A stretch of 64,000 nucleotides of DNA from an uncultured Pseudomonadales bacterium (GTDB taxonomy: Bacteria > Patescibacteriota > Microgenomatia > UBA1400 > PJMF01). Below, piece after piece: positions 9,474 through 41,279 of the stretch; position 1 is the stretch's first letter, and each line of letters begins with the position of its first letter. The stretch is taken from NCBI GenBank assembly GCA_964447075.1, contig CAYUQY010000004.1, forward strand, positions 3,760 to 67,759, given 5' to 3'. The translations under genes were made by a program, and so were the position numbers. The notes under the pieces are model-generated. The model did not search any database. It had not been told where the DNA came from and was given only the letters and a program-made list of their open reading frames with translations.

Positions 9474-10703
9474 TCAAGCTACCCAATATCCCTGTAGAAA
9501 GAGTATTGTATTAAATATAAGCCACAGAGTCGAGATAGATATGTAGAGAGCTCCGGATCTCGGGTGTTTGGCAAAGTACTTGCCTAAGCCTAGAAAAAAG
9601 GGTATCGAGATTAAGAAGTAGCGGGGTAAGCTAGAAAACGTACCTGTGAGAGTCGGGACAAAAAATGCCGATAGGGCAAAAAGAGTGTAGCTCCAACGAG
9701 TTGTTCTTGCCATGACGATCATCATGATCAAACCTACCCCACCCACTAAGAATTCAAGTAAAGAAGTAATAAATCTCAAGTCAAACGGAATAGTCGCTAA
9801 AATCTTAAGTGAACGCCAGAGTACTTGAGGGTAAATCACTAGTGAGTTTTGTCGCCCAGAGTTAAAAGCTGACTGAACATGAGCAAAATATAGCGGATCT
9901 CTAAACTCCAGCCACAAAAAGAGCATGTAGCCTATCAAGCCTAAACTTCCTAGAGAAAGAACTAGAATATTTTTGATGACGTTTGGCTTGAGAATTAAAC
10001 TCACTAAGTACTTAAGACCAATCCTTGGCTTAGAAACTAACTGTGAAGCATGCTCCTGCATCATCAGCTCCAGAATCATAGCTGGCAGAAGTAAAATTCC
10101 TACAATACGCGTCGCTGAGGCAAAGACTATAGTTAAGCTGACTAGATACCAATGACCCCTTTTAGCCAGCCAAAAACATGCTACCACCAAACATAAAAAG
10201 AGTGACTCTGTATAGAAAGCACCAAAGAATAATGCTGTTGGAAAAAGAAACAGAGTGAGTAGAGACCACTTGGCCACTTCTGCCCCACTCTCCTGTTTGA
10301 CAAAAAAGTACCACAAAATAAATAAAAGTAAGCCGAAAAAGTTAGTTAAAAACAAGCCAGTGCTTAGTAAGTTGAATCCTCCTAGGGCTAAATTGGGTAG
10401 ATAAAGCAACACAAAAGGAAAAACTGGAAAAAAAGCCTGCACCAGACCAGTGCCAATGTAACCTTTTTGGGCAATAGTCAGGTAGTGCACCCCATCAAAC
10501 CCAGCCCAAGAGTAGAGAGTTCGAGGCAAGCCGAACTTACTCAGTAAATCACCAGAGTAAGGAAAACTAGGACTGTAGGGTAAAAAGTGATCGGAGATCA
10601 AGCCTAGGGCTAGTAAGCTAGCTCTCCAGATAACAAAAAGAGAAACTAGGATTAAAAGCAAACGTGAGTTACTTGAAAAAAATTGCTTAAGTGTTTTAAA
10701 CAT
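9474..10703 (-). CDS. Polytopic membrane mannosyltransferase-like protein (PIG-V/GT76- or DUF2029-like GT-C)
   Basis: 409 aa and multi-TM. YSWAGFDGVHYLTIAQKGYIGTGLVQAFFPVFPF matches the WD..HY..IA..GY...AFFP pattern of PIG-V-type mannosyltransferases. This call is from memory of the family profile. Confidence 0.45.
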   Translation of the reverse strand: MFKTLKQFFSSNSRLLLILVSLFVIWRASLLALGLISDHFLPYSPSFPYSGDLLSKFGLPRTLYSWAGFDGVHYLTIAQKGYIGTGLVQAFFPVFPFVLLYLPNLALGGFNLLSTGLFLTNFFGLLLFILWYFFVKQESGAEVAKWSLLTLFLFPTALFFGAFYTESLFLCLVVACFWLAKRGHWYLVSLTIVFASATRIVGILLLPAMILELMMQEHASQLVSKPRIGLKYLVSLILKPNVIKNILVLSLGSLGLIGYMLFLWLEFRDPLYFAHVQSAFNSGRQNSLVIYPQVLWRSLKILATIPFDLRFITSLLEFLVGGVGLIMMIVMARTTRWSYTLFALSAFFVPTLTGTFSSLPRYFLISIPFFLGLGKYFAKHPRSGALYISISTLWLIFNTILFLQGYWVA

Positions 10704-12417
10704 ATTCCGCGGCCATCGGCTTTCCTGAAGTTGGTCTTTTTCTGATGATCCAGATCACTACTCCAACTCCAGCTACCAAAGAAATAAAGTTCCCTACAAC
10801 TCTAGACCAAGTCCACTGAGTAAATCTAGACTCCACATAGTAGTGACCTTCGTCCAATCTATAACTAATTCTTCCCTGTGAGGCTTCATCTACCTCATAC
10901 TCAATTAATTTTGACTTTCTTCGTAATTTACCTTCAATCAACGAAACATAGCTCTGCCAACCAGGAAACCACATAGTAGGCTCAACTATAACTGAACTAC
11001 TGTCTAAATCCAGAGTATAAATGTGCTTTGTGCCACTCCAAGATCTAACTAAAACCTTACCCCGTCCTGAAAGAATCTCTGCTGTAGGTTGCCAGTCACC
11101 CACTGCTTCATAAGCAAAATTTTTGGCTTTATTTTCATTTTGGACAGTAGTGGTCTGAGTAAAAGCCTCGTAGTCCACTGAAGTTCTATGGAAGTAATCT
11201 ACAGCTTTTAAGTTTAAAACTTGGGCAAACTGAACTCCTAAAAATATGAGAAAAAGTAGCTTCAGCCAAGCTCTAGAGCTCTGAAAAACCCAAGCTACAA
11301 CTGGTAAAACAAAGATAGACCAGAAAAATGCTAGTCTCCAGGGAAACTGGACATACTTGAGCAAATCGTAGCCAAAACTCCAAATGACTCTAGATGCTTC
11401 AGTCTGCAGGAGCACCATTGTCCAGCACAAGCCTATGCTTGCCAACATCAGCTTGGAGTGCTTTGCTACCCGAGCATCTGGCACAATGCAGTAGGAAACT
11501 GTGGCCAGAACTAAAGCGAGCCAACCAAGAGCTCCCAGCTGGAACGAGAGCGAGTCAATGTCACCTGCTACTGAGTATCCAAAGTTAAGTGGCGAAAACA
11601 ACAACTGATCTATAGTCACAAAGTGCTCGTAAAGAGCCCGATTGACTCCGGAAGAATCAAGGGCCGTCCAGCTCATCTCGGCTACGGCAGGCAGCCAGAA
11701 CCAGAGAGTTAGAAGTACTGCCATCAGAAGTACTGTTCCCAACTTCAACCAGCTTTTTATATTTTTTCCAAAAACAAACCAGGCATAGCTCAATAAAATA
11801 ACCGTCCCAAAAACTGCCGAGCCATTATGTGAGAGCAAAAATGCTACAACTAGGAGGAGGAACCCTATGAAGATCCTTAAAGATGTCGCCTGATTCTCGT
11901 TTGATATCTTAACAATCATCCAACTCAGACAAGGAAATAAACAGAAGGCCAGGATCTCTCCAACACCACCCCTAAAGTAAAGTAAATTTGCCAGGAAAGG
12001 CTGAGAAGCAAAAACTGCTGAAGCCACCAGACTTGCAGATAGTGATAATCTTTGCTCACGACACCACAAGAATGTGCCAACTACTCCAAGCAGCACAAAC
12101 GACATAACGATTAGCTTGTAGGTTAGCTCATACTCTACTTTAAAGAGAGAAAAAGGCAGCGAAATAATATTTGCTAAAGGATAGTTGAAGTTAAAAACTG
12201 GAAGGCCGTAGTGATTGAGTAAGTTGCCGGCCCATCTAGGAGGCAGCTGACCTTCTCTAAGAGCTATCTTGTAAGCTGCGAAACGGGCTAAGTGATTCTC
12301 TCCATCATGGGTGTAGGGAAACCCTGAGTGGAAGTAGAGCCTAGTCACCAAAAGAGTGATCGCCAGAAAAAAACAACCTAAAAATAATCTTTTTTTTGTT
12401 TGAGTAACTCTGAACAT
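10696..12417 (-). CDS. Uncharacterised polytopic membrane protein, subfamily B (N-terminal-loop HD..H..R motif); putative GT-C-like
   Basis: 573 aa. After TM1 comes YFHSGFPYTHDGENHLARFAAYKIALREGQLPPRW. It has many TM helices, a large C-terminal extracytoplasmic domain and a final TM anchor. The motif is shared with ORFs 17906 and 39471. Confidence 0.4.
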   Translation of the reverse strand: MFRVTQTKKRLFLGCFFLAITLLVTRLYFHSGFPYTHDGENHLARFAAYKIALREGQLPPRWAGNLLNHYGLPVFNFNYPLANIISLPFSLFKVEYELTYKLIVMSFVLLGVVGTFLWCREQRLSLSASLVASAVFASQPFLANLLYFRGGVGEILAFCLFPCLSWMIVKISNENQATSLRIFIGFLLLVVAFLLSHNGSAVFGTVILLSYAWFVFGKNIKSWLKLGTVLLMAVLLTLWFWLPAVAEMSWTALDSSGVNRALYEHFVTIDQLLFSPLNFGYSVAGDIDSLSFQLGALGWLALVLATVSYCIVPDARVAKHSKLMLASIGLCWTMVLLQTEASRVIWSFGYDLLKYVQFPWRLAFFWSIFVLPVVAWVFQSSRAWLKLLFLIFLGVQFAQVLNLKAVDYFHRTSVDYEAFTQTTTVQNENKAKNFAYEAVGDWQPTAEILSGRGKVLVRSWSGTKHIYTLDLDSSSVIVEPTMWFPGWQSYVSLIEGKLRRKSKLIEYEVDEASQGRISYRLDEGHYYVESRFTQWTWSRVVGNFISLVAGVGVVIWIIRKRPTSGKPMAAEYV

Positions 12418-12476
12418 TTTGGGCTTAACTCTTAGTTTGCAGTCACTAGAAAACTATGCTTTTACAGTTGATCAAG

Positions 12477-17881: not shown

Positions 17882-17905
17882 GGGGGATTTATCATATCAC
17901 CCTGG

Positions 17906-19735
17906 ATGGCTATATCTTCCCCTTTTCAAAGCTTACTCTTACGGACCAACAAGGCCTGGAGTATTGGAGTTGTTGCTCTAGTTGTTACTCTAGTCATAAC
18001 TGTTATGGGCCTACTAGGTACGCTACCTCTCTTTCACGATGGCCTCTACACTGCCCATGATATTTGGCACCAGATGGCTAGAGCCCATCACTACTTTGAA
18101 GTCGCCAAAGCAGGACAGTTCCCACCATATTGGGTAAGCAGCCTTGCTCAAGGATACGGCTACCCGCTTTTTTTCTTTTCGTACCACGCTCCTTGGTTGA
18201 TCGGACTGCCCTTGTCGTATCTTTTTTCAACAGAAGTCGTGATTAAACTTTTGTTCGGAGTTAGCTTTCTACTTTCAGGTTTCTCTATGTACTTTTTAGG
18301 TTATGTTATTTTTCGCCAAAAACTCCCCGCCCTTCTTTCTAGCGTACTTTACATGTGGGCTCCGTTTCATTTCTTAACCCTGTATGTAAGTGCTGCCATC
18401 GGCACTGCTTTCGTCTTTAGCTTTTTGCCTCTGGTTTTCATCGGACTAATTCTCTCAAAACAGCCTGGTAAACAAACGACCAGCATAGCCTGTTTGAGCG
18501 TAGGTTGTGCTGGCATTATCCTCTCGCACTTGATCACTTTCGTGATGTTTTTACCATTTTTTATTCTGGGATTGATCTATGTTTTGATCGATAAAACACG
18601 AGAAGTTTCTCTAGCCAAGATCTTTATGACTCTAGTTCTGGGGGGAGTGCTTAGTCTTGGAATAAGTAGCTTTTATTTAGTTCCTGCAGGCTACTACAAC
18701 AAGCTGACTGTTATCTCGACCCAAGCTGGGTTTGAAGACGTCTACAAGGGTAGTTTTGTTAATTTTTCACAGCTCATCTACTCACCTTGGGGTTTTGGAC
18801 CAATTATTTCTTCCGCCAAAGATGGTGAAATTTCACTTCAGCTCGGCCTTGGTCAATGGCTGGTAGTTCTCATGTCTATTTTAGTTCTTGGCTTAGGCAA
18901 AGTACTTAAGAGTAAGATACCTCAGACCAACCCTCTTACCAACCTGCTTATGTTTTGCCTCTGCTCGCTTGGGCTGTCTCTTTTTCTCATGACAGATGGC
19001 TCCAGACTTCTCTGGGACCTGGTCTCAAAAAATATCACCATCGACTATCCTTTTAGACTCTTAACCATTGGAATCTTTTTTTCCAGCTTGATAGGTGGCT
19101 GGCTACTTTATGCCATGAAGTCGTTACTCACCCAAGTTAGCCTGATAGGTAGAAAATTCAGAAGTATTGGCCTAGGTGTGACATTTATCAGCATAGTTAT
19201 AGTGATCTTGTACACCAATCGAAACTATGTTCGAGTCAATCTCTACACCAATGAGCCAGAATCACTCTATGTAGCCGCAGAGACTACTACCAACACTTTT
19301 CACGAGTACTTGCCGAAGAATGCCAAAAGAGAGCTCATAAATAAAGCCCACCAACCGATTGTTGCTTCCACGACAAATGAGGCTCATGTTTTATCTCAAG
19401 ACTCTTTTCAAAACTCCCTCCAAGTCATAGTTGAGTCTCCCACTGGGACAACTCTCACTTTCCGTCAATTTGATTTCCCTGGTCTGTCTGTGTTTCTCAA
19501 TGACCGTAAGTTACTTAAGCACACAACTGACGAAAGTGGCTTAATAAGAGTTGAGGTTCCAAGTGGCAAAAATACTCTCGTTGTAGAGTTTGTCAAAACT
19601 CCTTTGATTCAACTCAGTCTTTTTGTCACAGCCGTCTCTTTGGTTGTTCTGATCTACCTTGTTGCGCGTGAGATTATCTCCAAGGCTCATAAAAGTGCTA
19701 AAATACTAATACTCGATCCTGGAACACAAAATTAA
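17906..19735 (+). CDS. Uncharacterised polytopic membrane protein, subfamily B (HD..H..R motif)
   Basis: 609 aa. LFHDGLYTAHDIWHQMARAHHYFEVAKAGQFPPYW parallels ORFs 10696 and 39471. It has a C-terminal beta-rich extracytoplasmic domain and a terminal TM. Confidence 0.4.
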   Translation: MAISSPFQSLLLRTNKAWSIGVVALVVTLVITVMGLLGTLPLFHDGLYTAHDIWHQMARAHHYFEVAKAGQFPPYWVSSLAQGYGYPLFFFSYHAPWLIGLPLSYLFSTEVVIKLLFGVSFLLSGFSMYFLGYVIFRQKLPALLSSVLYMWAPFHFLTLYVSAAIGTAFVFSFLPLVFIGLILSKQPGKQTTSIACLSVGCAGIILSHLITFVMFLPFFILGLIYVLIDKTREVSLAKIFMTLVLGGVLSLGISSFYLVPAGYYNKLTVISTQAGFEDVYKGSFVNFSQLIYSPWGFGPIISSAKDGEISLQLGLGQWLVVLMSILVLGLGKVLKSKIPQTNPLTNLLMFCLCSLGLSLFLMTDGSRLLWDLVSKNITIDYPFRLLTIGIFFSSLIGGWLLYAMKSLLTQVSLIGRKFRSIGLGVTFISIVIVILYTNRNYVRVNLYTNEPESLYVAAETTTNTFHEYLPKNAKRELINKAHQPIVASTTNEAHVLSQDSFQNSLQVIVESPTGTTLTFRQFDFPGLSVFLNDRKLLKHTTDESGLIRVEVPSGKNTLVVEFVKTPLIQLSLFVTAVSLVVLIYLVAREIISKAHKSAKILILDPGTQN

Positions 19736-19746: not shown

Positions 19747-20472
19747 TTGAAAAAAATCAAACCTAAAGTTTTTATCGTCATGCCGGCTTACAACGCTGGC
19801 AAGACACTCAAAAAGACTCTCTCCGACATTCCAGATGGTGTGGCTGACAAAATAATCTTAGTTGACGACAGCAGCTCAGACGACACAACAGCTTTGGCCA
19901 AGAAACTTGGACTCGAAGTGGTATCTCATCCTCAAAACAGAGGTTATGGTGGCAATCAAAAGACCTGTTACACCATGGCTATCTCTCAAGGTGCTGATGT
20001 AGTTGTGATGCTTCATCCAGACTACCAGTACGATGCCTCGCTTATCCCAGAGATGATCAAGCCTATTGTGGACGGTCGTGTAGACGTTATGCTTGGCTCA
20101 AGAATTAGATCCAGAGCTGAAGTATTGGCAGGAGGTATGCCACTCTATAAATATCTAGGCAATAGATTTTTGACACTTCTAGAAAACACTATCTTAGGAC
20201 TTAATCTCTCTGAGTATCACACTGGTTATAGAGCTTTTAGCAGTCAGGTGCTCAAAAAAACTCCCTTTCACAAGTACTCTGATGACTTTGTTTTTGATCA
20301 AGAAATACTCTTTGGCCTTGTAGCTCGCGGTGCCAAAATTGGTGAAGTAGCTGTACCTGTACGCTACTTCCCAGAAGCCTCAAGCATCAACTTTTCTAGA
20401 AGCGTGACCTATGGTCTCTCTATACTATATGATCTTTTTGTCTATGTTATATCTAGAGGTAAAGCATTTTAA
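19747..20472 (+). CDS. Polyprenol-phosphate sugar synthase, family 2 glycosyltransferase (DPM1/GtrB/ArnC-like)
   Basis: VFIVMPAYNAGKTLKKTL, ILVDDSSSDDT, NRGYGGNQKT, HPDYQYDAS and GSR: the DPM1-like motif set. At 241 aa it is soluble with no TM. Confidence 0.8.
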   Translation: MKKIKPKVFIVMPAYNAGKTLKKTLSDIPDGVADKIILVDDSSSDDTTALAKKLGLEVVSHPQNRGYGGNQKTCYTMAISQGADVVVMLHPDYQYDASLIPEMIKPIVDGRVDVMLGSRIRSRAEVLAGGMPLYKYLGNRFLTLLENTILGLNLSEYHTGYRAFSSQVLKKTPFHKYSDDFVFDQEILFGLVARGAKIGEVAVPVRYFPEASSINFSRSVTYGLSILYDLFVYVISRGKAF

Positions 20473-32195: not shown

Positions 32196-33062
32196 CTAAG
32201 TTGTAGAGCCTCTAGAGCTCCTGAGTCTTTTCCAACACCAGTATGGTGTCCAAAAAATAAATGCTAGTTTCTGCCATGCGTCAGCGTTCTTCCAAGAAAA
32301 GTAGCGACTGTTACGCCAGCTAACTTGCTCCATATTTTGTTTACCTAATATAGTCTTGTTAGTGCTCTCATGCTGATGAACTACTGTAGCTTTTTCATCA
32401 AACTGTACTTTCCAACCCCTAGCTCGAGCTCTAAATGAAAGATCAACATCTTCCCAGTAGGCAGGCGAAAAGGCTTCATCAAAACCACCTAACTCTAAAA
32501 ATTTGTCACGATCAAAAAGGCCACTCCCACCACTTACCCAGGCAGTCAAACCAGACTTATAACTCTCTGCACGTGAGTGGTGAAACATGCCTCTCTCAAA
32601 CCAGAGTCTGTTGCGTCCACCCAACTTTCCTTCATCCTCAAGCTCCAGACAGCCAACACCAAATACTTTGGAGTCGTCAAAGTGTTTACTCAATACATCC
32701 AAAACATCTGACTCTGGAGAAACGTCGTTGTTGATCAAAAAGACTAATGGATTTTTGGCCAGTCTGACTCCACGATTGCAGCTCACCGCAAAACGCAAAT
32801 TTTTGTCATTGATCACTAGGGTCAGCTTCACATTCTTGGCCGCCATAAGTGTGGGAGAAATGGAGCTGCTACTCCAGCTCCCAAGTGTATCTTTGGAGAG
32901 TGAAAAAGTATCGACTAGCCAGGTCACAGAATCATCATTGCTACAGTCATCAAGTATCAAAATCTCATCACCGCTGCGTAAACAAGCTAGCAAAGATGTT
33001 AAATTTTTCTTGAGAAGGTCAAGTCCATTGTAGGTGGGAACGATAACTGAAACGTGAAGCAT
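32196..33062 (-). CDS. Family 2 glycosyltransferase
   Basis: VSVIVPTYNGLDLLKKNLTSLLAC, ILILDDCSNDDS, INNDVSPE and YWEDVDLSFR. Confidence 0.8.
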   Translation of the reverse strand: MLHVSVIVPTYNGLDLLKKNLTSLLACLRSGDEILILDDCSNDDSVTWLVDTFSLSKDTLGSWSSSSISPTLMAAKNVKLTLVINDKNLRFAVSCNRGVRLAKNPLVFLINNDVSPESDVLDVLSKHFDDSKVFGVGCLELEDEGKLGGRNRLWFERGMFHHSRAESYKSGLTAWVSGGSGLFDRDKFLELGGFDEAFSPAYWEDVDLSFRARARGWKVQFDEKATVVHQHESTNKTILGKQNMEQVSWRNSRYFSWKNADAWQKLAFIFWTPYWCWKRLRSSRGSTT

Positions 33063-33152
33063 ATTTAGTTTTTTACTTGGATTTGTAGTGGCATCACTAG
33101 TAATTTTATATCAAGAACATTGTTTCTTTACGGGCGGAAACTTGCCCAAACA

Positions 33153-34310
33153 TCAACCATCTATCATTTTTTTCAAAGTGGATCTAAATCTAGCTGGACT
33201 GTAAGACTGCGAACAGGATATCAATGATTGGCGCAGCTGGCTCACCTCTTTGATTACTTCACTATCCACTGAACTCAATTTACTCATCCACTCCAGAGTT
33301 TTTTCTCGGCACTGCGAGCTGGTTTGCCAGGTTAGACTCTCAAAATTGCTTAGGATTTCTTTCTGGCCACCTTTACCTACGACGATAGGAACACAGCCAT
33401 GAGCCATAGCCTCAACTGTACTAATCCCAAAGTGCTCAATCTTTTCTGGGTGAGCTGCTTCGTCCTCACCATACCCCGCAGCATGCCAATAGATACTAGC
33501 CTCATCATATAGCTTAGTCAGAGCTTGTTTATCTGCTTGGTGAACAAACTCTATCGGATATCCAGCTGCAGCCTCGTGCAAGGCCTTAACGTACTCATAG
33601 TCCTCCACACCCCCCACCAGAATTAGTTTCCAGCCAGTAACTGTACTGCTACCACGGTTAATCATGTCTCTAAAAATATTGATCAAAATATCCTGCTTCT
33701 TAGCATGTAGTTGGCGAAAGAAGCGGCCTACTGTAAGAATTGATTTCTTTTTCTTAAGTAGTATTTCCTTATCTGCATTTTTTTCATTAATCATCGGGTA
33801 GTGGACAAAACCAATTGAAGTTTTCCAGCTCTTTTCTACAATTTTTTGAGTAAAAATGGAGTTGGCATTTTTGCAGCACCAGTTGAGAAGTTTTAATCTA
33901 TTAAGTAAGCCTTGTTGGGGTGATGTAAAAGGTACTTGAATATGAAGAATATTTTTTTTAGCTAGACTTAAAAAAAGACTCCCGTCGGTAACTGCATACA
34001 TCAAGTCAAACTGCTTTGTCCACCAGAGTTTTTTCCACTTATCCTCTGATCCAATCGGTGTTTTAATAAAAACAATGTCCTTCAACGAAATTTCAAAAAA
34101 CTTCTCGTAGTTGCTGGCAATCTGGGCGTAGATCGCCTCATCACTCTGCAACTCTTTATGCTCTAGGCGATAGAGAGAAAGCGTTCTGTTGCTTATGGCT
34201 ACGTTGACAGAGTGACCAAGCTCTCTCAAGCTTACTGCCACATCAAAAAAATACTTTTCTCCACCACCAAAGTGTTTTGGAACATAGGGTGAGTAAAGGC
34301 AGATTTTCAT
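33153..34310 (-). CDS. Family 4 glycosyltransferase (GT-B)
   Basis: N-terminus MKICLYSPYVPKHFGGGEKY and C-domain EHFGISTVEAMAHGCVPIVVGKGGQKEIL. Confidence 0.8.
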   Translation of the reverse strand: MKICLYSPYVPKHFGGGEKYFFDVAVSLRELGHSVNVAISNRTLSLYRLEHKELQSDEAIYAQIASNYEKFFEISLKDIVFIKTPIGSEDKWKKLWWTKQFDLMYAVTDGSLFLSLAKKNILHIQVPFTSPQQGLLNRLKLLNWCCKNANSIFTQKIVEKSWKTSIGFVHYPMINEKNADKEILLKKKKSILTVGRFFRQLHAKKQDILINIFRDMINRGSSTVTGWKLILVGGVEDYEYVKALHEAAAGYPIEFVHQADKQALTKLYDEASIYWHAAGYGEDEAAHPEKIEHFGISTVEAMAHGCVPIVVGKGGQKEILSNFESLTWQTSSQCREKTLEWMSKLSSVDSEVIKEVSQLRQSLISCSQSYSPARFRSTLKKMIDG

Positions 34311-34331
34311 AATTTGTTAGCTATTTTTTCA

Positions 34332-35090
34332 CTACTTTAAAATTACCAAGTAAAATCTATTCGTGCTTGAGCTCCACTTCTTGTGACCTACCAGAAACGG
34401 ATAAACTACTAAATTACAAGCTAAATAAAGGCTAATTTTGATGAAAAACCAGATGTGATTGAGAAGTGAGTTTGAGAACTGAGATATCTGCAGCTTCATG
34501 AAAAAGGCTGATAGCCTGTGGTCTCCAGCGTACCAGAGCTGACCTTGGAACTGCTTGCGCCACTTTTCAATCTCTCCTGTAGTAGGCAAGCCATTTTTAA
34601 TGTGCTCATTCAAGAACTCAACATCTACTCCTCGTTTTAGAAGCTCTTGTTTCAAGCTATGCTCGCCTCTAACATGCTCGCTTGTACCAAGCGGGGCAGA
34701 GCAGATTAGTCTTTTTTTGGAGACTCTAAGCATTTCTGTGACCAAAGCCAGCCTTTCGTCAACTCTCACATGCTCTAGAACATCGATGCAAAGAACTGTG
34801 TCAAATGATTGATCGGAGAAAGGTATATTTTTGCCGTCGTAAACTAAGTCCTTTTGACTTGGCTGGTGATGGTTGAAAATTTTAGAAGAGGCGCTGTCTA
34901 CATTGATCGTGAAGTACTCACTTGACTCAATCACAGACTCCAAAACTCTCTGCTCTCCACCCACATCTAGAACTTTGCCCTTGTCAGGAATCAATTTGCT
35001 AATAAATCTTTGGCGCTCATGAATGTCGGGAGGAAGACACCAAAATGCCTTAACCAGATAATGCTCAAAAGTACTCAAAGCCTTGATCAT
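34332..35090 (-). CDS. Probable SAM-dependent methyltransferase (Methyltransf_11/23-like)
   Basis: GKVLDVGGEQRV is a degenerate motif I. FDTVLCIDVLEHV and KKRLICSAP are class I post-I/II-like motifs. The call is weak. Confidence 0.45.
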   Translation of the reverse strand: MIKALSTFEHYLVKAFWCLPPDIHERQRFISKLIPDKGKVLDVGGEQRVLESVIESSEYFTINVDSASSKIFNHHQPSQKDLVYDGKNIPFSDQSFDTVLCIDVLEHVRVDERLALVTEMLRVSKKRLICSAPLGTSEHVRGEHSLKQELLKRGVDVEFLNEHIKNGLPTTGEIEKWRKQFQGQLWYAGDHRLSAFFMKLQISQFSNSLLNHIWFFIKISLYLACNLVVYPFLVGHKKWSSSTNRFYLVILK

Positions 35091-35905
35091 ATTTTGGCAT
35101 CTTTCCAGTCTTGGGCAACCTCTTTTTCTTTAGCTGAGTAGAGCTCCTCGAGGGTAGGTTTTTTCTGCAGCTCCCAGAGATTGATGTAGAGAAGTGTTTT
35201 ATTTATGGCCTGAACGACTGACTCTACAAATCCTTCTTGACCATCTTTATAGCCTTTCCAAAAAATATAGCGCCTTAAAAACTCCATCATGCCTTTGCGG
35301 ATGATGTCAAACAAGCTCACTTTTGCAGCAGAGTCCTCGTTCAAAAGTCGAGCTTCTATGGCTGTCCAGTCGATGGTTTTCCTCAAACCATCCATAGTGT
35401 TACGATGTGTCAGATGTAGTAAAGGAGTATGGAGAGTGACGGTTGCACCCACATCGACAGGACTCTCATGTATCTCTCCATGCCAACCTTTAAAAAATGA
35501 TTTTCTAAAGATACGCGTAACTGACTCATCTTGCCACCCACCATACTTGAAAAACTTACCATACATCATGTTCTGCCTTATCATTGTCAAAGCATTGTGA
35601 GGTGTTGTCTCGACATGAACCATGATCTCGCGAGCCAATGGTGGCAAAATACGCTCATCTGCGTCCACATAGAGAAGCCAGTCACAGCTAGCTCTATCAG
35701 CACCTTCTTGCCTAACTCTGGATAATGATGACGAATTTATCGAAAAAACCTTCGCACCATGGAGCTGGGCTAACTCGACAGTACGATCTGAAGAACCAGA
35801 GTCGATCACGACTACTTCATCACACCAAGCTAGAGTAGCCAAACAGTTGGCTATCATAAGCTCTTCATTGCGAGCTATGACAATGGCTGAAATACTTGAG
35901 TTCAT
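35087..35905 (-). CDS. Family 2 glycosyltransferase
   Basis: ISAIVIARNEELMIANCLATL, VVVIDSGSSDRT and YVDADERI. Confidence 0.8.
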   Translation of the reverse strand: MNSSISAIVIARNEELMIANCLATLAWCDEVVVIDSGSSDRTVELAQLHGAKVFSINSSSLSRVRQEGADRASCDWLLYVDADERILPPLAREIMVHVETTPHNALTMIRQNMMYGKFFKYGGWQDESVTRIFRKSFFKGWHGEIHESPVDVGATVTLHTPLLHLTHRNTMDGLRKTIDWTAIEARLLNEDSAAKVSLFDIIRKGMMEFLRRYIFWKGYKDGQEGFVESVVQAINKTLLYINLWELQKKPTLEELYSAKEKEVAQDWKDAKI

Positions 35906-36813
35906 ATTTGTTGCTTGCCCATTCTACCTAAAATAAAGTCAACTGTAGCCTGCCTCTCTATGTGTGTACCTTGAACTAAGAATCTAAGACTAAGCTTGAA
36001 GGCTGTCAATCTCACTCTATTGGTGCCAAATTTAAACGAAAAGTAAAGCCTATTTCTGGTCTGGTAGTACTGGTGAGTTCTAGAGCCAACTCCTCCTGTA
36101 GAGCCTGCATTCTTGTGCCAAATTCTAGAGAATGGATCCAACAAAACCTCGTACCCTGCTCTAGAAATTTTGAGACTAAGTGCCACATCCTCAAAGTAGA
36201 GAAAGTACTTCTCATCAAACCCACCGACTCTCTGGATGACTTTACTGGGTATAAGCATACAACAGCCAGTAGCAAAGTCGCACTCTTGAACCTCATCGAA
36301 CTGCCCAGTGTCTACCTCATCCACTCCTCTGTGAAAACCAAGCAAGTTTAGCCAGTCCATACTGCCACCTGCATACCAAAGTACTTGCCCCCTACTGTCT
36401 TTGGAGTAACTTTTTTTAAAGTACTCACAGCCCTTAGCAAAGTATATCTTTGGCGAGATCACACCAGCTCTAGGGTGAGCTAGGGCACACTCCACTAGAT
36501 TCTCGACGGAGCTGGGTTCAACTAGAGTATCGCTATTCAGCAGGAGTAAGTAATCTGGCTGAAAAGTGCTAAGAGCATACTTAATACCTAAGTTGTTACC
36601 TGCTGTAAAACCTAAATTTGCGTCTGAGCGAATTACTTCTGTTCTGCGAGGGGAGTTCACTCCATGACTAAAAATTTCTTTTGAGCCGTTGTCGACAACT
36701 ACTACCGATAACTTGATTTTCTTTGTCTCCGCTAAGCTGAGAGAACGTAAACACTCTCTGGTTTCTTTCTCACTGTTGTAGTGGACAATAATCACAGATA
36801 CTGATTGGGACAT
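35902..36813 (-). CDS. Family 2 glycosyltransferase (rhamnosyltransferase-like)
   Basis: VSVIIVHYNSEKETRECLRSL, VVVDNGSKE, LLLNSDTLV and DFATGCCMLIPSKV. Confidence 0.8.
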   Translation of the reverse strand: MSQSVSVIIVHYNSEKETRECLRSLSLAETKKIKLSVVVVDNGSKEIFSHGVNSPRRTEVIRSDANLGFTAGNNLGIKYALSTFQPDYLLLLNSDTLVEPSSVENLVECALAHPRAGVISPKIYFAKGCEYFKKSYSKDSRGQVLWYAGGSMDWLNLLGFHRGVDEVDTGQFDEVQECDFATGCCMLIPSKVIQRVGGFDEKYFLYFEDVALSLKISRAGYEVLLDPFSRIWHKNAGSTGGVGSRTHQYYQTRNRLYFSFKFGTNRVRLTAFKLSLRFLVQGTHIERQATVDFILGRMGKQQI

Positions 36814-36840
36814 ACATGGGCTATTGTAGCTTAAAAGAGC

Positions 36841-37776
36841 CTAAATAAGCAGCTTGCGCCTCAAGCGCCAATAAAGCTGCGTTACTCCTGAGGTACGAGC
36901 TGCGTGCCAATCTGCAATCCAGTAGTTGAGCTCCCTCTGGAAGGATCGCAAACTGCCTATCATCTGCAGCTGAGATGAACTATGACTTCCTGAAAAATCT
37001 GCTTTTTCCCATCGTTTGAGCAGGCTCACAGACTGATACATGCTCTGCAGTAGAGACAGTCCTGCTCCATGCATGCCATCTTGAATTCCTGAAAGTGCAA
37101 AAAATCTTCTCAAAAAATCAGAGTAAAAGGCAGTGAGTAAATGCTCAGGCGTCAACTCTGTATCTGTTTTTTTTCTGCGCTCATCACTGTGACTTGCTTC
37201 GATCGAGGTGTAACGATTTAGTCTCTCTACAAACTGCGAAATTGTCTGATAGTTGTGATGCAGAATCGCTAAAGACTCACTCTCTGGCAGGTCAGCAACT
37301 TCACCGCTCACTTCCGGTATCGAGTGAATACTGTCTTGCCACTTGACACTGCCACGTCTAAATAAACGAAGCTGGTAGTCTGGCCACCAGCCAGTGTGTT
37401 TGAGCCACTTACCAAAAACCAGGTTACATCTTGCGACTCTGTAAGCTACGACTTCTAACTGCAAAGCACTGTCTTGTTTTACAACTTCGGCAATTTTTTG
37501 TGATAGTGCTTGAGGCAGCTCTTCGTCAGCATCCAAGACAAGTATCCACTCTCCGATAGCCTTGGAGATAGCGATGTTTCGCGCAGGCTCGACATAGTTG
37601 TAGTCCTTATCCAGAGAAAAAACTTTGCAGCCCAATCCACGTGCTATATCCAGAGTCTCATCACTGCTCATCATATCAACTACAATCACTTCATCACTTA
37701 TGCTCTGAATACTCTGCACTGCTCTGGCGAGAGTGCTAGCCGCATTTTTGGTGTTGATAATGACTGAGAGTGACAT
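36841..37776 (-). CDS. Family 2 glycosyltransferase
   Basis: LSVIINTKNAASTLARAV, VIVVDMMSSDET and VLDADEE. Confidence 0.8.
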   Translation of the reverse strand: MSLSVIINTKNAASTLARAVQSIQSISDEVIVVDMMSSDETLDIARGLGCKVFSLDKDYNYVEPARNIAISKAIGEWILVLDADEELPQALSQKIAEVVKQDSALQLEVVAYRVARCNLVFGKWLKHTGWWPDYQLRLFRRGSVKWQDSIHSIPEVSGEVADLPESESLAILHHNYQTISQFVERLNRYTSIEASHSDERRKKTDTELTPEHLLTAFYSDFLRRFFALSGIQDGMHGAGLSLLQSMYQSVSLLKRWEKADFSGSHSSSQLQMIGSLRSFQRELNYWIADWHAARTSGVTQLYWRLRRKLLI

Positions 37777-37801
37777 ATCTTTTAGATTACTTTAGTTTAC
37801 T

Positions 37802-39433
37802 CTAGTGTTTGGCCACCTTCAAACTCGATATTTCAAACAGCAATTTTTGTTTGCCAGTAATCAAGATTGAGAGTAAGTAAGTTAGACCAGTAAAAAAGAT
37901 TCCAGAGAAATACCAACTCCAGCTGAGACTCCACAACTCCAAACCCAGCACAGCCACACAGGCCATAGCCACTGCAGAAAGAAGTTGTCTCCAGACATTC
38001 TCCCAAACTTTAATAGGAACTATTTTTTTGAAACTCCAGATGGGCAGAATAGAAGTAAATGAAATAATGATAGCTGCCCAGGCTACTCCATTGAAGCCTA
38101 ACCACCACATGAGAGGGATGGTCAGAACCCAAGTCAGAGCTGTCCAAAAAACCATCAACTTCAGAGTAGTGTTTATCTCTCCTATAGCATTGAGCGCATT
38201 CATGAGTGGACTGGATACTGCTCCCCAACCTATGCTGAGGGTGAATAAAACCAAGGAAAGCAAGGCTGGCTGCCACTTTAGATATCTCGGCTCAAGAATC
38301 GTGAGAGGTGCCATGAAAACAGACATCCCAACTACTATCGGAAAGATAATTAAAGTTATAAAGAACAGTGACTTTTCGACTACAGAGCCTAAAAGTTTTT
38401 TATCGTGCTGAAGTCTGGAGAAGGTTGGAAAAGTAACAGCCATCACATTTTGGACAGTAAGATTATAAGGATACATAGACCAATTTTTGGCCCAAGTAAC
38501 ATAACCAAACTCGCGAAGAGGCAGGTAGTACCCCAGACATAAGTAAAAAAATTGATCTTTTAGTCGTGCTAGAAGATCGTTGAGTTGAAACTTGAAGCCA
38601 AACTTCATCAAGGTGCTCAGAGATGAACGATCCCAGGCAAAGTGAGGTCTCCACCACTCAATGTAAAACATAGCCAACACGCCACTTAGGGATCTCACCA
38701 AAGTAGCCAAGACGTATGACCACACTCCCCAACCAGTTACAACCATTCCAACTAAACAGACATTGAAGCTAAGTTGCTCTATTATTTGAGGCCAAACTAG
38801 CTTTTGAAAATCAAGTCGCCTCTCTAGCTTTAGTGAAGGTACAGTCTTTAAGCTAGCCAAGGGGAAAGCAAGTGCTAGAGCTAGAGCCAACCAGGTACCC
38901 ACCTCACCTGTCTTTTCAGCTATCAATCCCTCATGCCGGCTCCAGCTACAACTAGAAGGAAATAATTGAATCGCACAGCCTGCATATCTCAATAAATTGG
39001 ATCCCTGACTTGAGATCAGAAAAATGGTAATGCCTACTATTAACCAGGATAAAAGCTGTTGAACAGAAAAGGCTGTTGCATAGTCAGCTTCTGTAGGCTC
39101 GTCTTTTTTCTGAATTAGAGCTGCAGCCAAACCTATGTCAGAGAAGAAAACCAGCATACCCACTATCTGGGTCACAAAACCATAAATACCAAACTCTTCG
39201 GGACTTAGATACTTGCTAAGTAGTAAGCTAGCCACCAAACCAATTATTTGCAAGAAGATAGTACGACCAAAGTACGACATCGCTCCTGAGACGGACTTCT
39301 TTTTTACGCTTTCAAAGTTCAGAGCGTCAGCTACTAGTGAGGATGATTTTGGTAGAGACATACTGTAGAGACTTTTCAAATGGTACCAGATCTCGCTTAC
39401 AATTAGTTTTAAATTTAAATCAAAATTTAACAA
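37802..39433 (-). CDS. wzx: Wzx-type polysaccharide flippase (MOP superfamily, Polysacc_synt-like)
   Basis: FGRTIFLQIIGLVASLLLSKYLSPEEFGIYGFVTQIVGMLVFFSDIGLAAALIQKK is the characteristic PST-family N-terminal region. It has 12 or more TM helices. The first ~24-51 residues may be untranslated, with alternative ATGs at 39361 and 39280. Confidence 0.65.
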   Translation of the reverse strand: MLNFDLNLKLIVSEIWYHLKSLYSMSLPKSSSLVADALNFESVKKKSVSGAMSYFGRTIFLQIIGLVASLLLSKYLSPEEFGIYGFVTQIVGMLVFFSDIGLAAALIQKKDEPTEADYATAFSVQQLLSWLIVGITIFLISSQGSNLLRYAGCAIQLFPSSCSWSRHEGLIAEKTGEVGTWLALALALAFPLASLKTVPSLKLERRLDFQKLVWPQIIEQLSFNVCLVGMVVTGWGVWSYVLATLVRSLSGVLAMFYIEWWRPHFAWDRSSLSTLMKFGFKFQLNDLLARLKDQFFYLCLGYYLPLREFGYVTWAKNWSMYPYNLTVQNVMAVTFPTFSRLQHDKKLLGSVVEKSLFFITLIIFPIVVGMSVFMAPLTILEPRYLKWQPALLSLVLFTLSIGWGAVSSPLMNALNAIGEINTTLKLMVFWTALTWVLTIPLMWWLGFNGVAWAAIIISFTSILPIWSFKKIVPIKVWENVWRQLLSAVAMACVAVLGLELWSLSWSWYFSGIFFTGLTYLLSILITGKQKLLFEISSLKVAKH

Positions 39434-39470
39434 AAAAATGATTGATACTCGAAGTCAAAGTAACTTCTAA

Positions 39471-41279
39471 CTAATTTAAGTTGCTGTTCTTTTTTAGCAA
39501 CCAACCTTGACGATAAGCTAAAATTAATCCACCAACTATGCTTAAAACAGTAGTTAGATCGCTCCACCATCTGACTGGAGTCTTGCCAAGCTGAAGCCCC
39601 ACTTTCTGCATACCTGGCTGAACATCAATTTGAATCGTACCTAAATCGCTTGGTCTAGTAGCCACTTCCTGGCCATCAACATAAGCCTTCCATCCAGGAA
39701 AGAAAACTGTGTGAAAGGAGAAACTGCCAGTAGATTGGACAGATATTTCTAGCAGCTTTTCTTGTGACCTATTCACAAGGACTTTGTTTTTGGAGCTATC
39801 ACAACTTGGACAAGTAATAAGTAGCTCTGCTTGGCTTAGTTCGAGGTCACTAGCTTCCATAAGGTTTTGCTTCTCACCTTTTTTAAGATCTAATGTAAGA
39901 GGGATGTAGTCAGGCAAAATACCACTCATTTTAGTCTGAATTTTGACAGGCTCTGTAAAGTACAAGGCTTCTGAGTTGTCCAAAAATGACTCTGGCTGAA
40001 AGTACTTTGCGTTGAGTAAAAAAGCACCTATTAAGACGATTGAGACAATCGGTACCATGGTTTTATTCTTTATGAATCCCAGTAACTGCCCGCAAAGAAG
40101 TGACAGGAAAACCACACCTACGCCCAAGAATCTCCATGGAAACTGAGCTGTCTGGAGAGGTTGGATGACATCCCAAATGGGCTTGGATTTTTCCAGAGAA
40201 AGAAACAGTGACCCGACCATCAAGCAAAAAATTAAGATGAACTGGGATGTAGCTAAATCTGCTAGCTTGAGCTGCTTTTTTATGAGAGAAATAAGGAACA
40301 GACCTAGTGACAGAACCACTGCTAGGAGCTGACCGTAACCCAAGAAAAAAGACATACCGTCGTCTGGTCCCCACGACGAGCCTGTAAATCCCCAGTTCGG
40401 GGTCAAAAATTGACGAATGTAGAGGAAGTGTTGAGAGTAGTGAAAGTAACCTCCCAAGATATCTTTTAAGTGGGTAAGATCTTTTTCTAGTAAAGCTGGA
40501 AAAAGATAAAAAGCTGTCAGACCCACGGCCAGTCCTGCCGATAGAAACAGAGCTTGAATCGACTTTTTCAGTGACAAACTATGCTCTTTCTTGTGTCTCT
40601 CTTGCCAAAGCATGCCTAGAGAAAATGCTGCAATAAAGGGCGCTGAGATCATGGTTGTGATGTTATGGCTTAAAAAAAGTGTGCATAAACTTAGGGTCAG
40701 AACTAGGCCACCATACTTTTCTCCTCTAACAACTTTCATAACTCCTAGAAGCACCCAAGGAAGAGACATAATGCCCCAGTTCTCAGAAACTGCTCCTCTA
40801 ACATAGAAGTTGACTGCCCTGTAAGGAGCTAAACTCAAGGCAGAGGACGAGACTAAAGCTGCCCAGACGCTACCATGAAGCTTCAAAGAAAGTAGGTAAC
40901 AACCCCAAAAAGTCAGAACAGCGCATAGAATATAAAGCAGTTTGATGCTCAAGATTGCATCTGGCCAGATCAAGTAGGCCATCCCACCCAAGTAGTACGG
41001 AAGTGGTGCATAGAAGATGTAGAGGGGCATGCCGTAGCCATAACCCAGATTGGCAGACCAACGCACCGGAACTTGGCCATCTGCGAGGCCTCTAGCCATC
41101 TCGACAACTCTGGCTGCATGGGTGTAGTCATGAACTCTGAAAAAAGTAGGCTCCAGCATGGGCACTAGAGTTGAAAAGATGCAGATCAGGGCTACTAAGG
41201 AAACCAGCCAAGCCTGCTTTTTCCAGATCTGAGACCACTTTAAACTGTACTTTGAACTGAAAAGTGACATGGGCTCCAT
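39471..41279 (-). CDS. Uncharacterised polytopic membrane protein, subfamily B (HD..H..R motif)
   Basis: 602 aa. TFFRVHDYTHAARVVEMARGLADGQVPVRWSANLGYGYGMPLY parallels ORFs 10696 and 17906. It ends in a C-terminal beta-rich domain plus a TM. Confidence 0.4.
   Translation of the reverse strand: MEPMSLFSSKYSLKWSQIWKKQAWLVSLVALICIFSTLVPMLEPTFFRVHDYTHAARVVEMARGLADGQVPVRWSANLGYGYGMPLYIFYAPLPYYLGGMAYLIWPDAILSIKLLYILCAVLTFWGCYLLSLKLHGSVWAALVSSSALSLAPYRAVNFYVRGAVSENWGIMSLPWVLLGVMKVVRGEKYGGLVLTLSLCTLFLSHNITTMISAPFIAAFSLGMLWQERHKKEHSLSLKKSIQALFLSAGLAVGLTAFYLFPALLEKDLTHLKDILGGYFHYSQHFLYIRQFLTPNWGFTGSSWGPDDGMSFFLGYGQLLAVVLSLGLFLISLIKKQLKLADLATSQFILIFCLMVGSLFLSLEKSKPIWDVIQPLQTAQFPWRFLGVGVVFLSLLCGQLLGFIKNKTMVPIVSIVLIGAFLLNAKYFQPESFLDNSEALYFTEPVKIQTKMSGILPDYIPLTLDLKKGEKQNLMEASDLELSQAELLITCPSCDSSKNKVLVNRSQEKLLEISVQSTGSFSFHTVFFPGWKAYVDGQEVATRPSDLGTIQIDVQPGMQKVGLQLGKTPVRWWSDLTTVLSIVGGLILAYRQGWLLKKNSNLN

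Follow-up and report, generated by a model that had tools for sequence, protein, structure and literature searches.

The window, by which we mean the whole 64-kb stretch of DNA analyzed here, carries 14 to 15 GT-C enzymes, three of which form a group of their own:

10696..12417, minus strand: paralogue A, a predicted GT-C-fold membrane protein of 573 aa, with no Pfam match of any kind
17906..19735, plus strand: paralogue B, a predicted GT-C-fold membrane protein of 609 aa, Pfam PTPS_related
39471..41279, minus strand: paralogue C, a predicted GT-C-fold membrane protein of 602 aa, Pfam YfhO, at the head of a conserved operon

A sequence-only reading of this DNA, which gave no strands, had placed all three open reading frames exactly and had proposed that they make up a three-member subfamily. 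This was borne out. Over their full length, the proteins are 24% (A/B, E 3e-22), 25% (A/C, E 6e-22), and 27% (B/C, E 8e-42) identical by BLASTP, and when the window's 14 GT-C-like proteins are compared all against all by BLAST, the three form an exclusive cluster. None showed significant BLAST similarity to the window's 11 other GT-C-like genes, the best outside match being at E~1e-3; thus, the grouping of exactly three is real and far beyond chance.

Hydropathy and AlphaFold models give the same layout for A, B, and C: TM1, a first loop of 60 to 70 aa, a multi-TM core, an extracytoplasmic C-terminal beta-sandwich of about 130 to 140 aa, and a terminal TM helix. The order of these parts is the one read earlier from the sequence; the C-terminal domain, described there as large, is of moderate size. 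Crude hydropathy undercounts helices compared to the AF2 models, and its use was confined to TM1, the first loop, and the C-terminal domain. Directly after TM1, all three proteins carry H-D-x(2,3)-H-x(2,3)-R, followed by GQxPxxW and then YGxPx[F/Y]. The positions of the motif are as follows:

12283..12309, minus strand: first-loop motif of A, HDGENHLAR, residues 37-45
18056..18082, plus strand: first-loop motif of B, HDIWHQMAR, residues 51-59
41109..41132, minus strand: first-loop motif of C, HDYTHAAR, residues 50-57

The motif strings quoted in the sequence-only reading are present in all three proteins; the spacing (HD-x3-4-H-x3-R) and the residues that follow (given as G(Y/L)PxF) needed slight correction to the forms above. 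B has an additional, earlier "HD" at residues 43-44, which is nonhomologous.

Conservation along the protein is highest in the first loop. In an alignment of 24 sequences spanning the A-, B-, and C-type orthologue groups, which is the conservation check that the earlier reading had called for, the H, D, and R of the motif are invariant, and H50, D51, and R57 of C are kept in 55 of the 55 sequences of alignment A2. Among database homologues, HD.{2,3}H.{2,3}R occurs in 116/120 of C type and 117/120 of B type. The eight complete A-type orthologues, from eight other genomes and taken from loci already retrieved, all have it in the form HDG[NQ]NHL[IV]R.

The AlphaFold models are confident and predict a 13-helix membrane fold of the GT-C kind, within the 7 to 13 TM helices of that class and with its arrangement. 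The top 22 Foldseek matches of C are all GT-C proteins, so that the structural comparison suggested with the original proposal came out in its favor; the oligosaccharyltransferases AglB, STT3B, and PglB rank among the best structural matches. In the C model, the stretch from TM1 to TM2 contains helices 53-66 and 92-104, as expected for a GT-C first loop, and the motif residues H50, D51, and R57 sit between TM1 (residues 9-42) and the first loop helix (53-66), with H-D in A, B, and C replacing the usual GT-C acidic pair (DxD/DE type). Three further elements of C can be placed on the DNA:

40131..40142, minus strand: FPWR of C, residues 380-383, directly before a TM helix, with a candidate phosphate-binding Arg
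39582..39785, minus strand: extracytoplasmic C-terminal beta-sandwich of C, residues 499-566, a possible acceptor- or carbohydrate-binding module
39483..39578, minus strand: terminal TM helix of C, residues 568-599, a helix in the model

The helix at FPWR begins at residue 381 in the model; P381 is invariant, and R383 is at least 90% conserved. This Arg appears analogous to one that other GT-C families conserve ahead of a late TM helix (PMC7801869), R415 of AftA being an example (PMC10265970), and may likewise bind phosphate. Terminal hydrophobic segments equivalent to that of C were found by hydropathy at residues 540-558 of A and 568-586 of B.

Family searches tie the group to the GT-C clan, with marginal scores. 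C scores 31.8 bits against Pfam YfhO (PF09586; gathering cutoff, 28.5), with only profile positions 66-390 of 835 aligned, and B scores 30.1 bits against PTPS_related (PF10131; cutoff, 26.4), both just above threshold; the Pfam search gave no YfhO match for A or B, and against PTPS_related C reaches 21.9 bits, below the cutoff, and A has no match. Both models belong to the GT-C clan (CL0111; PMC7801869). The proposal of a GT-C subfamily, with YfhO-like and DUF-type proteins as candidates, is therefore supported, and the Pfam search brought up no rival family. What had been named in advance as evidence against it, a clear assignment to a well-characterized non-glycosyltransferase family, did not appear for A, B, or C in Pfam, NCBIfam, or the PDB. 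NCBIfam gave no meaningful match, and the only marginal sequence match in the PDB was AftD (E 0.14). Across 56 family members, Pfam matches were to PTPS_related in 41 (the most frequent; best E, 1.6e-13), GT-C_AftD in 30, YfhO in 26, and PMT_2 in 26, the counts for PTPS_related and YfhO being taken at E<=0.01. The family is very large, comprising 8,558 clusters (50% identity, E<=1e-30). Our literature search found no experimentally tested or biochemically characterized member, and PF10131 itself came up there only in passing, as a family of the GT-C clan whose function is unknown.

The neighborhood of B is consistent with use of a lipid-linked donor:

19747..20472, plus strand: GT2 of 241 aa, 12 bp downstream of B, Pfam Glycos_transf_2, a candidate polyprenyl-phosphate sugar synthase for the donor of B

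The best PDB sequence matches of this GT2 include the dolichol-P-mannose synthase 5mlz and the Und-P-Ara4FN transferase ArnC. An orthologous GT2 (49-71% identity) adjoins the B orthologue in all four other genomes examined, making the pair common to 5/5 genomes with the window included; in one of them the two genes stand by themselves amid an unrelated context. This arrangement mirrors the csbB-yfhO operon (PMC5836110). The database homologues of B, 220 in number, all come from Microgenomates-type Patescibacteria and are all named "hypothetical."

C heads a longer operon, and further genes of the cluster bear on its role:

37802..39433, minus strand: Wzx/MOP-type flippase, directly downstream of C, Pfam Polysacc_synt_3, E 9.6e-50
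32196..37776, minus strand: rest of the C operon, with Pfam assignments of GT2 (36841), GT2 (35902), GT2 (35087), methyltransferase (34332), GT4 (33153), and GT2 (32196)
41499-42572, plus strand: LytR-CpsA-Psr (LCP) ligase, divergent from C, by Pfam
42826-43842, plus strand: RmlB, divergent from C, by Pfam
43940-44833, plus strand: RmlD, divergent from C, by Pfam
57447..58604, plus strand: fusion of a GT2 (Glycos_transf_2, E 6e-29) to a GtrA/DPMS TM domain (GtrA_DPMS_TM, E 2.3e-12), a candidate polyprenyl-P-sugar synthase or flippase
60295..61071, plus strand: DPMS/ArnC/GtrB-like GT2, PDB matches to DPMS (5mlz, E 6.8e-12), ArnC, and GtrB (sll0501)

The order C-Wzx-GT2-GT2-GT2-GT4-GT2 is found in most of 80 Patescibacteria loci, a Wzx-type flippase adjoining the C orthologue in 70. 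LCP (57/80), RmlB (56/80), and RmlD (53/80), where found, are almost always encoded on the other strand, upstream of the C orthologue. In most genomes the operon holds five cytoplasmic glycosyltransferases and Wzx without a DPMS-like GT2. In an alternative order, seen in about nine loci (L023, L046, L053, L054, L061, L065, L068, L069, and L072), an orthologue of the GT2 at 60295-61071 is directly upstream of the C orthologue. A CsbB/GtrB-type partner accompanies B in 5/5 genomes and C only in this minority order, and none was seen for A.

Our preferred reading, to which we give a probability of about 0.7, is that A, B, and C are paralogous extracytoplasmic glycosyltransferases of the GT-C fold, from a large family marginally captured by PTPS_related and YfhO, which would use lipid-linked donors and employ the motif Asp as a base. 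The relatedness of the three, their GT-C fold, the conservation of the motif, and the gene neighborhood are shown; the kind of donor, the catalytic residue, and the acceptor are inferred. Finding such enzymes among genes for glycan synthesis is what one would expect, and, coming from so large a family, the three are fairly ordinary. The constant presence of a DPMS/GtrB/ArnC-like GT2 beside B, and the conserved operon in which C stands with a Wzx flippase and cytoplasmic glycosyltransferases, divergent from LCP-RmlB-RmlD, support lipid-linked donors, and we propose the following sequence of steps. A cytoplasmic DPMS/GtrB/ArnC-like GT2 (19747-20472 for B; possibly 60295-61071 for C) would put a sugar on polyprenyl phosphate, and a flippase would carry the lipid-linked sugar outward, the candidates being the Wzx-type protein (37802-39433) and the GtrA domain of 57447-58604. 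The GT-C membrane core may then bind the lipid phosphate, perhaps through the invariant K113 and the FPWR Arg. The catalytic base would be the motif's invariant Asp, at the junction of TM1 and the first loop, with the invariant Arg and the flanking His orienting it or else binding a cation or phosphate. Finally, the sugar would be moved to an acceptor outside the membrane, which the C-terminal beta-sandwich probably helps to hold. In this way, A, B, and C probably add sugars to the cell surface. The most likely acceptor would be a rhamnose-containing wall glycopolymer attached to peptidoglycan by the LCP ligase; a surface protein is possible. There is precedent for a Wzx-type flippase working with a GT-C enzyme and a lipid-P-monosaccharide, with LCP ligation last, in GacK/GacL (bioRxiv 10.1101/180810), and MATE flippases have the same role in other three-component systems (PMC11127046).

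For the catalytic step, a role that the earlier reading had also suspected for the His/Asp/Arg cluster of this loop, we propose D51 of C as the catalytic Asp and R57 as its partner. The motif Asp is placed where most GT-C enzymes hold theirs, in the segment joining TM1 to the first juxtamembrane helix, the equivalence being one of topology. In most of these enzymes the catalytic Asp is on ECL1, and AftA has R132, on the next helix, to hold D128 (PMC10265970); K39 and D41, essential in AftD, are also near the N-terminal end (bioRxiv 10.1101/2019.12.22.885152). Since the HD motif lies ahead of the region aligned by Pfam and hhalign, the motif itself is not demonstrably common to the characterized GT-C families.

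A different donor has to be considered for C and possibly for A: a polyprenyl-diphosphate-linked oligosaccharide flipped by Wzx, on which the enzyme would act as an en bloc transferase, a primer extender, or a polymerase, filling the role of Wzy, WaaL, or OST-type enzymes before LCP ligation to peptidoglycan. We consider this unlikely overall, even though for C an operon that in most genomes combines five cytoplasmic glycosyltransferases with Wzx and lacks a DPMS-like GT2 fits such a donor at least as well as a monosaccharide. The place of C at the head of this operon in most of the 80 genomes, divergent from LCP-RmlB-RmlD, agrees with it, as does the lack of any Wzy_C or O-antigen ligase Pfam match for A, B, C, or the other window proteins scanned. 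The oligosaccharyltransferases among the best structural matches point the same way, and the divalent cation required by GT-C enzymes with diphosphate donors could be bound at the His/Asp/His cluster. Nevertheless, the OST signature WWDYG is absent from A, B, and C, and the tight coupling of B to its GT2, together with the DPMS-like GT2 directly before C in the alternative order, argues for a monosaccharide donor; Wzx-type flippases have also been proposed for Und-P-monosaccharides, GacK among them. Membership in the OST family proper (STT3/PglB/AglB, GT66) was rejected given the lack of a WWD motif and of a PF02516 match, and the likeness is structural only.

Considerably less probable is that the GT-C fold has been kept without transferase activity, the proteins serving as scaffold or substrate-binding subunits, in the manner of PIG-U in the GPI transamidase, or as flippases of lipid-linked sugars. 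It was at one time speculated that YfhO flips the donor it uses (PMC5836110), which would favor such a role, but active enzymes typically show what is seen here, an Asp/Arg/His cluster that is invariant and a first loop under strong conservation; every one of the best structural matches is an active transferase, and the dedicated GT2 partner of B argues for an enzyme that consumes a donor. Scarcely credible is the literal sense of the database name, by which these would be pterin enzymes related to 6-pyruvoyl-tetrahydropterin synthase with the His/Asp cluster as a metal site. Some homologues are called "6-pyruvoyl-tetrahydropterin synthase-related protein," and PF10131 bears that name; however, the proteins have a 13-helix membrane GT-C fold and not a soluble T-fold, PF10131 is itself a GT-C clan family of unknown function (PMC7801869), and no pterin genes lie near A, B, or C, where the whole neighborhood is devoted to glycan biosynthesis. 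We rejected this identity on the membrane fold and the glycan context.

Reading A, B, and C as extracytoplasmic glycosyltransferases invites comparison with known systems, among them the YfhO family (PF09586). It includes YfhO of B. subtilis and S. aureus (LTA GlcNAc transferase), Listeria Lmo1079 (WTA), and streptococcal PgtC2 and PgfM1/M2 (protein O-glycosylation). Common features are membership in the GT-C clan, a topology of about 13 TM helices in which the last two flank an extracytoplasmic domain, pairing in an operon with a GtrB/CsbB/DPMS-like GT2, as for B, and donors expected to be Und-P-monosaccharides, with wall polymers or proteins as the targets (PMC5836110, PMC8035078, PMC12041528). 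A, B, and C differ in their length of about 600 aa and C-terminal domain of about 135 aa, compared to a 389-aa loop in B. subtilis YfhO (PMC5836110), in the borderline score of C and the failure of A and B to pass, and in coming from Patescibacteria rather than Firmicutes. PTPS_related has the same multi-TM core, and NCBI homologues are named after the PF10131 model, but that model begins after the first loop and does not contain the HD motif.

Among mycobacterial arabinofuranosyltransferases, AftA (GT85) similarly holds its catalytic Asp by an Arg one helical turn on (D128/R132), and AftD has its essential Asp (D41) near the N terminus; the acceptors of both are wall glycans later ligated by an LCP enzyme, and rhamnose genes are nearby here. 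Identity to them is only 9-13%, however, and no decaprenyl-phospho-arabinose pathway genes were seen here; the Asp of AftA is on ECL2, and AftD has three CBMs and binds ACP. The PMT_2/ArnT/PMT enzymes (GT39/GT83), with about 10 paralogues in the window, share a homologous membrane core and the same gene cluster, and hhalign detects the window's PMT_2-like GT-C proteins at 97% probability (E 3e-11) over that core. Their first loop is not alignable, they have a D-E motif in place of H-D-x2-3-H-x2-3-R, and in A, B, and C the C-terminal domain is followed by a terminal TM helix. Membership in the PMT_2/ArnT-like family (PF13231) was set aside, with no PF13231 match, an H-D motif, and PMT_2 paralogues in the window to which BLAST finds no similarity. 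All component types of the streptococcal GacI/GacK/GacL rhamnopolysaccharide side-chain system are found in the window, namely an Und-P-sugar GT2, a Wzx-type flippase, a GT-C transferase, an ABC-exported rhamnan, and an LCP ligase, the pathway assignment being by analogy only; GacL differs in being a PMT_2-type GT-C enzyme, not of the YfhO/PTPS_related type.

One can take the role of C further, although we offer this tentatively and regard it as doubtful: C-type enzymes might be the conserved extracytoplasmic priming or polymerizing glycosyltransferases of a wall glycopolymer pathway common to the Microgenomates-type Patescibacteria, made up of C, Wzx, and five cytoplasmic glycosyltransferases and divergent from LCP-RmlB-RmlD, with the motif as a distinct GT-C active site built on a His-assisted or metal-binding Asp. 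If so, the logic of the pathway would resemble that of mycobacterial arabinogalactan, with a lipid-linked primer, GT-C extension outside the membrane, and LCP ligation, and the H-D-x2-3-H-x2-3-R loop would be a mechanistically distinct GT-C active site deserving its own CAZy family.

For annotation, the misleading "6-pyruvoyl-tetrahydropterin synthase-related" is better read as "GT-C glycosyltransferase," and D51 and R57 are clear mutagenesis targets for the first biochemistry on the PTPS_related/YfhO-like branch. Envelope chemistry in the Patescibacteria (CPR) is almost unknown, the organisms being mostly uncultured, and our search found no relevant paper on their glycosylation. With C in a gene order that dozens of species keep and that gives it a flippase, a peptidoglycan ligase, and rhamnose genes as neighbors, the locus provides a concrete candidate for a CPR wall-polymer pathway.

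Three open reading frames of the window encode the paralogues considered here.

10696-12417, minus strand: A, 573 aa
17906-19735, plus strand: B, 609 aa
39471-41279, minus strand: C, 602 aa

These coordinates, first given in a sequence-only reading, match the ORF listing exactly. In full-length BLASTP alignments, A and B share 24% identity (E 3e-22), A and C 25% (E 6e-22), and B and C 27% (E 8e-42). When the GT-C-like membrane proteins of the window, at least 14 in number, were compared all against all by BLAST, A, B, and C formed a closed cluster, the best E-value to any protein outside it being only about 1e-3; the earlier grouping of the three as one subfamily was therefore correct. Seven PMT_2-like proteins made up a second cluster and the products of the genes starting at 27054 and 58659 a pair, with at least five sequence groups among the 14 proteins. 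Fourteen GT-C-type membrane glycosyltransferases within 64 kb is an extraordinary density, and the genome, from the Patescibacteria, is probably small. The genes (starts at 990, 9474, 10696, 14473, 16091, 17906, 20567, 22353, 24124, 27054, 28580, 30487, 39471, and 58659) span 990-61071; the products of 22353, 24124, 27054, 30487, and 9474 had no Pfam match at E<=0.01. Beyond them, 61173-63998 (plus strand) is open throughout and continues past the window end, for which reason it is missing from the ORF listing; it encodes at least 942 aa of a very hydrophobic protein. This product, with '...SHDMFNY...GNGHNDLW...' in the N-terminal part and a PMT_2-like 'FADESIYIRW' later, looks like two fused GT-C-like modules.

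The first-loop motif strings originally quoted are present (HDGENHLAR from residue 37 in A, HDIWHQMAR from residue 51 in B, and HDYTHAAR from residue 50 in C), but the spacing was slightly off, the right form being H-D-x(2,3)-H-x(2,3)-R. In all three proteins it is followed by GQxPxxW and then YGxPx[F/Y]; an additional HD, 7 residues upstream of the motif in B, is non-homologous. A regular expression for the motif matched 116 of 120 C-type and 117 of 120 B-type proteins, the exceptions mostly having Gln or Asn for the second His, while one protein has Tyr in the first His position and another is truncated; HDG[NQ]NHL[IV]R was found in all eight complete A-type orthologues. An alignment of 24 sequences covering the A-, B-, and C-type groups has 21 invariant positions (numbered as in C: H50, D51, R57, W74, G83, P85, F89, K113, P152, P174, H205, P261, Q290, S310, G314, W369, P381, Y440, G529, G547, and G556); a noncatalytic role for the three proteins is unlikely. 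The most conserved segment is the first loop (residues 43-91), with a mean top-residue frequency of 0.59 to 0.67 versus 0.43 overall. It is distinctive in its invariant H-D...H...R, where DxD or DE is usual.

Confident AlphaFold2 models were obtained for C (pLDDT 91.2, pTM 0.92) and A (pLDDT 86.7, pTM 0.90). In a Foldseek search of the PDB with C, the top 22 matches were all GT-C proteins, among them AftA, STT3, PglB, EmbC, ArnT, AftD, and DPY19, at 6-15% sequence identity; no solved YfhO-type structure was among the PDB matches. The model of C also bears out the proposed layout of TM1, a multi-TM core, a C-terminal extracytoplasmic domain, and a terminal TM helix. A short, basic N terminus leads into TM1 (residues 9-42); H50-D51 lie in the short linker past it, and H54 and R57 are borne by a loop helix (residues 53-66). 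The GQxPxRW and GYGxPxF stretch separates this helix from a second short one (residues 92-104), after which the membrane core begins. A conserved FPWR (residues 380-383) stands directly ahead of a TM helix, and the extracytoplasmic region (residues about 427-566), which ends in a beta-sandwich (residues 499-564), precedes the terminal TM helix (residues 568-599). A pair of juxtamembrane helices in this position, between TM1 and TM2, is a hallmark of solved GT-C enzymes. In most of these enzymes a conserved Asp on ECL1 marks the active site, and in AftA R132 on the next helix holds the catalytic D128 (PMC10265970); AftD has an essential K39 and D41 at its N-terminal end (bioRxiv 10.1101/2019.12.22.885152). 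From topology and conservation, we infer that D51 and R57, at the TM1/loop-helix junction, are the counterpart of this catalytic Asp (AftA D128/R132). YfhO of Bacillus subtilis, in which catalytic residues could not be identified, has a similar architecture of about 13 TM helices, the final two flanking an extracytoplasmic domain, but with a far longer loop of 389 aa (PMC5836110); the compact size of A, B, and C is distinctive.

Membership in the GT-C superfamily, a candidate at the outset, is firmly established by Pfam, the models, and Foldseek. YfhO or PTPS_related membership in the Pfam sense is borderline: B exceeds the cutoff for PTPS_related (PF10131; 30.1 bits, cutoff 26.4), C exceeds that for YfhO (PF09586; 31.8 bits, cutoff 28.5) with PTPS_related under the cutoff at 21.9 bits, and A has no Pfam match. 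No NCBIfam match was found for any of the three, nor did they belong to the PMT_2, OST (oligosaccharyltransferase), or Wzy families. Since the Pfam matches of 56 family members at E<=0.01 are split over PTPS_related (41), GT-C_AftD (30), YfhO (26), and PMT_2 (26), the family lies within the GT-C clan, between several models that each capture it weakly. A profile search of PDB sequences gave AftD as the only match, a marginal one (E 0.14). By hhalign, the alignment to the PMT_2-like GT-Cs of the window (97% probability, E 3.4e-11) runs from residue 92 onward only; the membrane core is homologous to theirs and the first loop different.

More than 1,093 homologues of C stand in a 90%-clustered database, nearly all metagenomic or from Patescibacteria MAGs. 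They are named 'hypothetical protein' or, in occasional cases, 'membrane protein YfhO' or '6-pyruvoyl-tetrahydropterin synthase-related protein'. PF10131 is itself a GT-C clan member of 'function unknown' (PMC7801869), and a 'pterin synthase' reading of A, B, and C is unlikely. B belongs to a separate orthologue group in Daviesbacteria, Blackburnbacteria, Pacebacteria, and Microgenomates, every member named 'hypothetical', and A-type orthologues (37-39% identity) occur in eight of the genome loci retrieved. A profile of the 24-sequence alignment, run against 1.84 billion cluster representatives, found 28,314 proteins at E<=1e-3, 15,875 at E<=1e-10, and 8,558 at E<=1e-30. By this census the HD-motif family is very large, and it is already in databases under misleading names and with marginal Pfam coverage; therefore A, B, and C are further members of an existing kind and no new kind. 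The family also includes tandem duplications or very long multimodule proteins (P0241, 1116 aa; P0242, 1093 aa; P0288, 1670 aa; and P0243, 3329 aa, with 6 stretches matching the profile), which could be real fusions or gene-calling readthrough. Dozens of GTDB/GenBank MAG records with the Patescibacteria-specific cluster (L002, L003, L005, and many more) are titled 'uncultured Pseudomonadales bacterium', some with isolate names containing 'PATE'; these titles look like taxonomic mislabeling.

The window is a single long glycan-biosynthesis region of an uncultured Patescibacteria genome; B has 100% identity to a protein on Logan contig SRR8670878_19510. The Pfam matches of the window comprise many PMT_2-type GT-Cs, GT2 and GT4 enzymes, an acyltransferase, methyltransferases, and a GT2-GtrA fusion; Wzm/Wzt, a Wzx-type flippase, and an LCP ligase; and RmlB/RmlD, UDP-glucose dehydrogenase, and GDP-mannose dehydratase. 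The genes that bear on the context of B and C are as follows.

19747-20472, plus strand: GT2 (241 aa), starting 12 bp past B
37802-39433: Wzx-type flippase, following C in its operon
41499-44833: LCP-RmlB-RmlD, divergent from the C operon
60295-61071, plus strand: DPMS/ArnC/GtrB-like GT2

The GT2 beside B has dolichol-P-mannose synthase and ArnC among its best PDB sequence matches. An orthologue of it (49-71% identity) adjoins the B orthologue (about 39% identity) in four of four other genomes, in one of which the two genes occur by themselves within an unrelated neighborhood; csbB and yfhO of Firmicutes are arranged in this way (PMC5836110, PMC8035078). The start codons of B and the divergent 16091-17881 (minus strand) lie 24 bp apart (17881-17906), leaving hardly any space for two promoters, so one annotated start may be wrong or the promoters intragenic. 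The A operon (minus strand), which lies upstream of Wzt/Wzm, has the gene order PMT_2, PMT_2, GT2, GT4, A, 409-aa membrane protein, epimerase. The 409-aa protein (9474-10703, minus strand) is polytopic, shares 8 bp with the end of A, lacks a Pfam match, and has a 28%-identical relative in another genome locus (L086) with a weak PMT_2 annotation; it is possibly a further divergent GT-C or PIG-V-like enzyme partnering A.

The C operon is strikingly conserved among Microgenomates-type genomes, which is a further distinctive feature. Among 80 species-representative genomes, all Patescibacteria, a Wzx gene lies directly past the C orthologue in 70, and most loci have the order C-Wzx-GT2-GT2-GT2-GT4-GT2. 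LCP (57/80) and RmlB (56/80), when present, are nearly always upstream on the opposite strand. In about nine genomes, an orthologue of the GT2 at 60295-61071 stands directly ahead of C, with an A-type gene after C, beside PMT_2 genes. Between RmlD and TrmD, relative to the synteny conserved elsewhere, the window has an insertion (44851-53387, plus strand) in which the gene for a class A PBP of 727 aa (transglycosylase and transpeptidase) overlaps at its end with the start of one for a bacterial alpha-2-macroglobulin of 2119 aa, a PBP1c/A2M-type pairing. TrmD (53397-54110, minus strand, GTG start) and the 5' end of UDP-glucose dehydrogenase (53965-55416, plus strand, TTG start) overlap on opposite strands by about 145 bp; Pfam matches begin at residues 49 and 42, respectively, and both starts as listed are probably too far upstream.

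We favor, with a probability of about 0.72, A, B, and C being extracytoplasmic GT-C glycosyltransferases of the three-component type, the working mode of YfhO/GtrB-type systems, whose YfhO topology they share. We imagine that a DPMS-like GT2 would charge polyprenyl phosphate, that a flippase would expose the donor, and that the GT-C enzyme would then move the sugar onto a wall glycopolymer or surface protein. In this scheme the catalytic base would be D51, with R57, H50, and H54 serving for positioning or ion binding; K113 and R383 are candidate phosphate ligands. A Wzx-type flippase working with a GT-C enzyme and Und-P-monosaccharide, followed by LCP ligation, has a precedent in GacI/GacK/GacL (bioRxiv 10.1101/180810), and MATE-family proteins fill the same flippase role in other three-component systems (PMC11127046). 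Proteins, too, can be acceptors for YfhO-family enzymes (PMC12041528), so the acceptor may be of either class.

In the main alternative, the substrate of C would be a diphosphate-linked oligosaccharide flipped by Wzx, and C would be a polymerase or en bloc transferase. The conserved operon, with its five cytoplasmic GTs, would suit this role, and no match to a Wzy or ligase family was seen. However, C lacks the OST signature WWDYG, it resembles monosaccharide-donor enzymes in structure equally or more closely, and DPMS-like GT2 partners exist, which makes such a role improbable. It is a tentative and rather doubtful further step that C is the core enzyme acting outside the membrane in a conserved pathway for a CPR wall polymer; if it is, the interest of the finding would increase.
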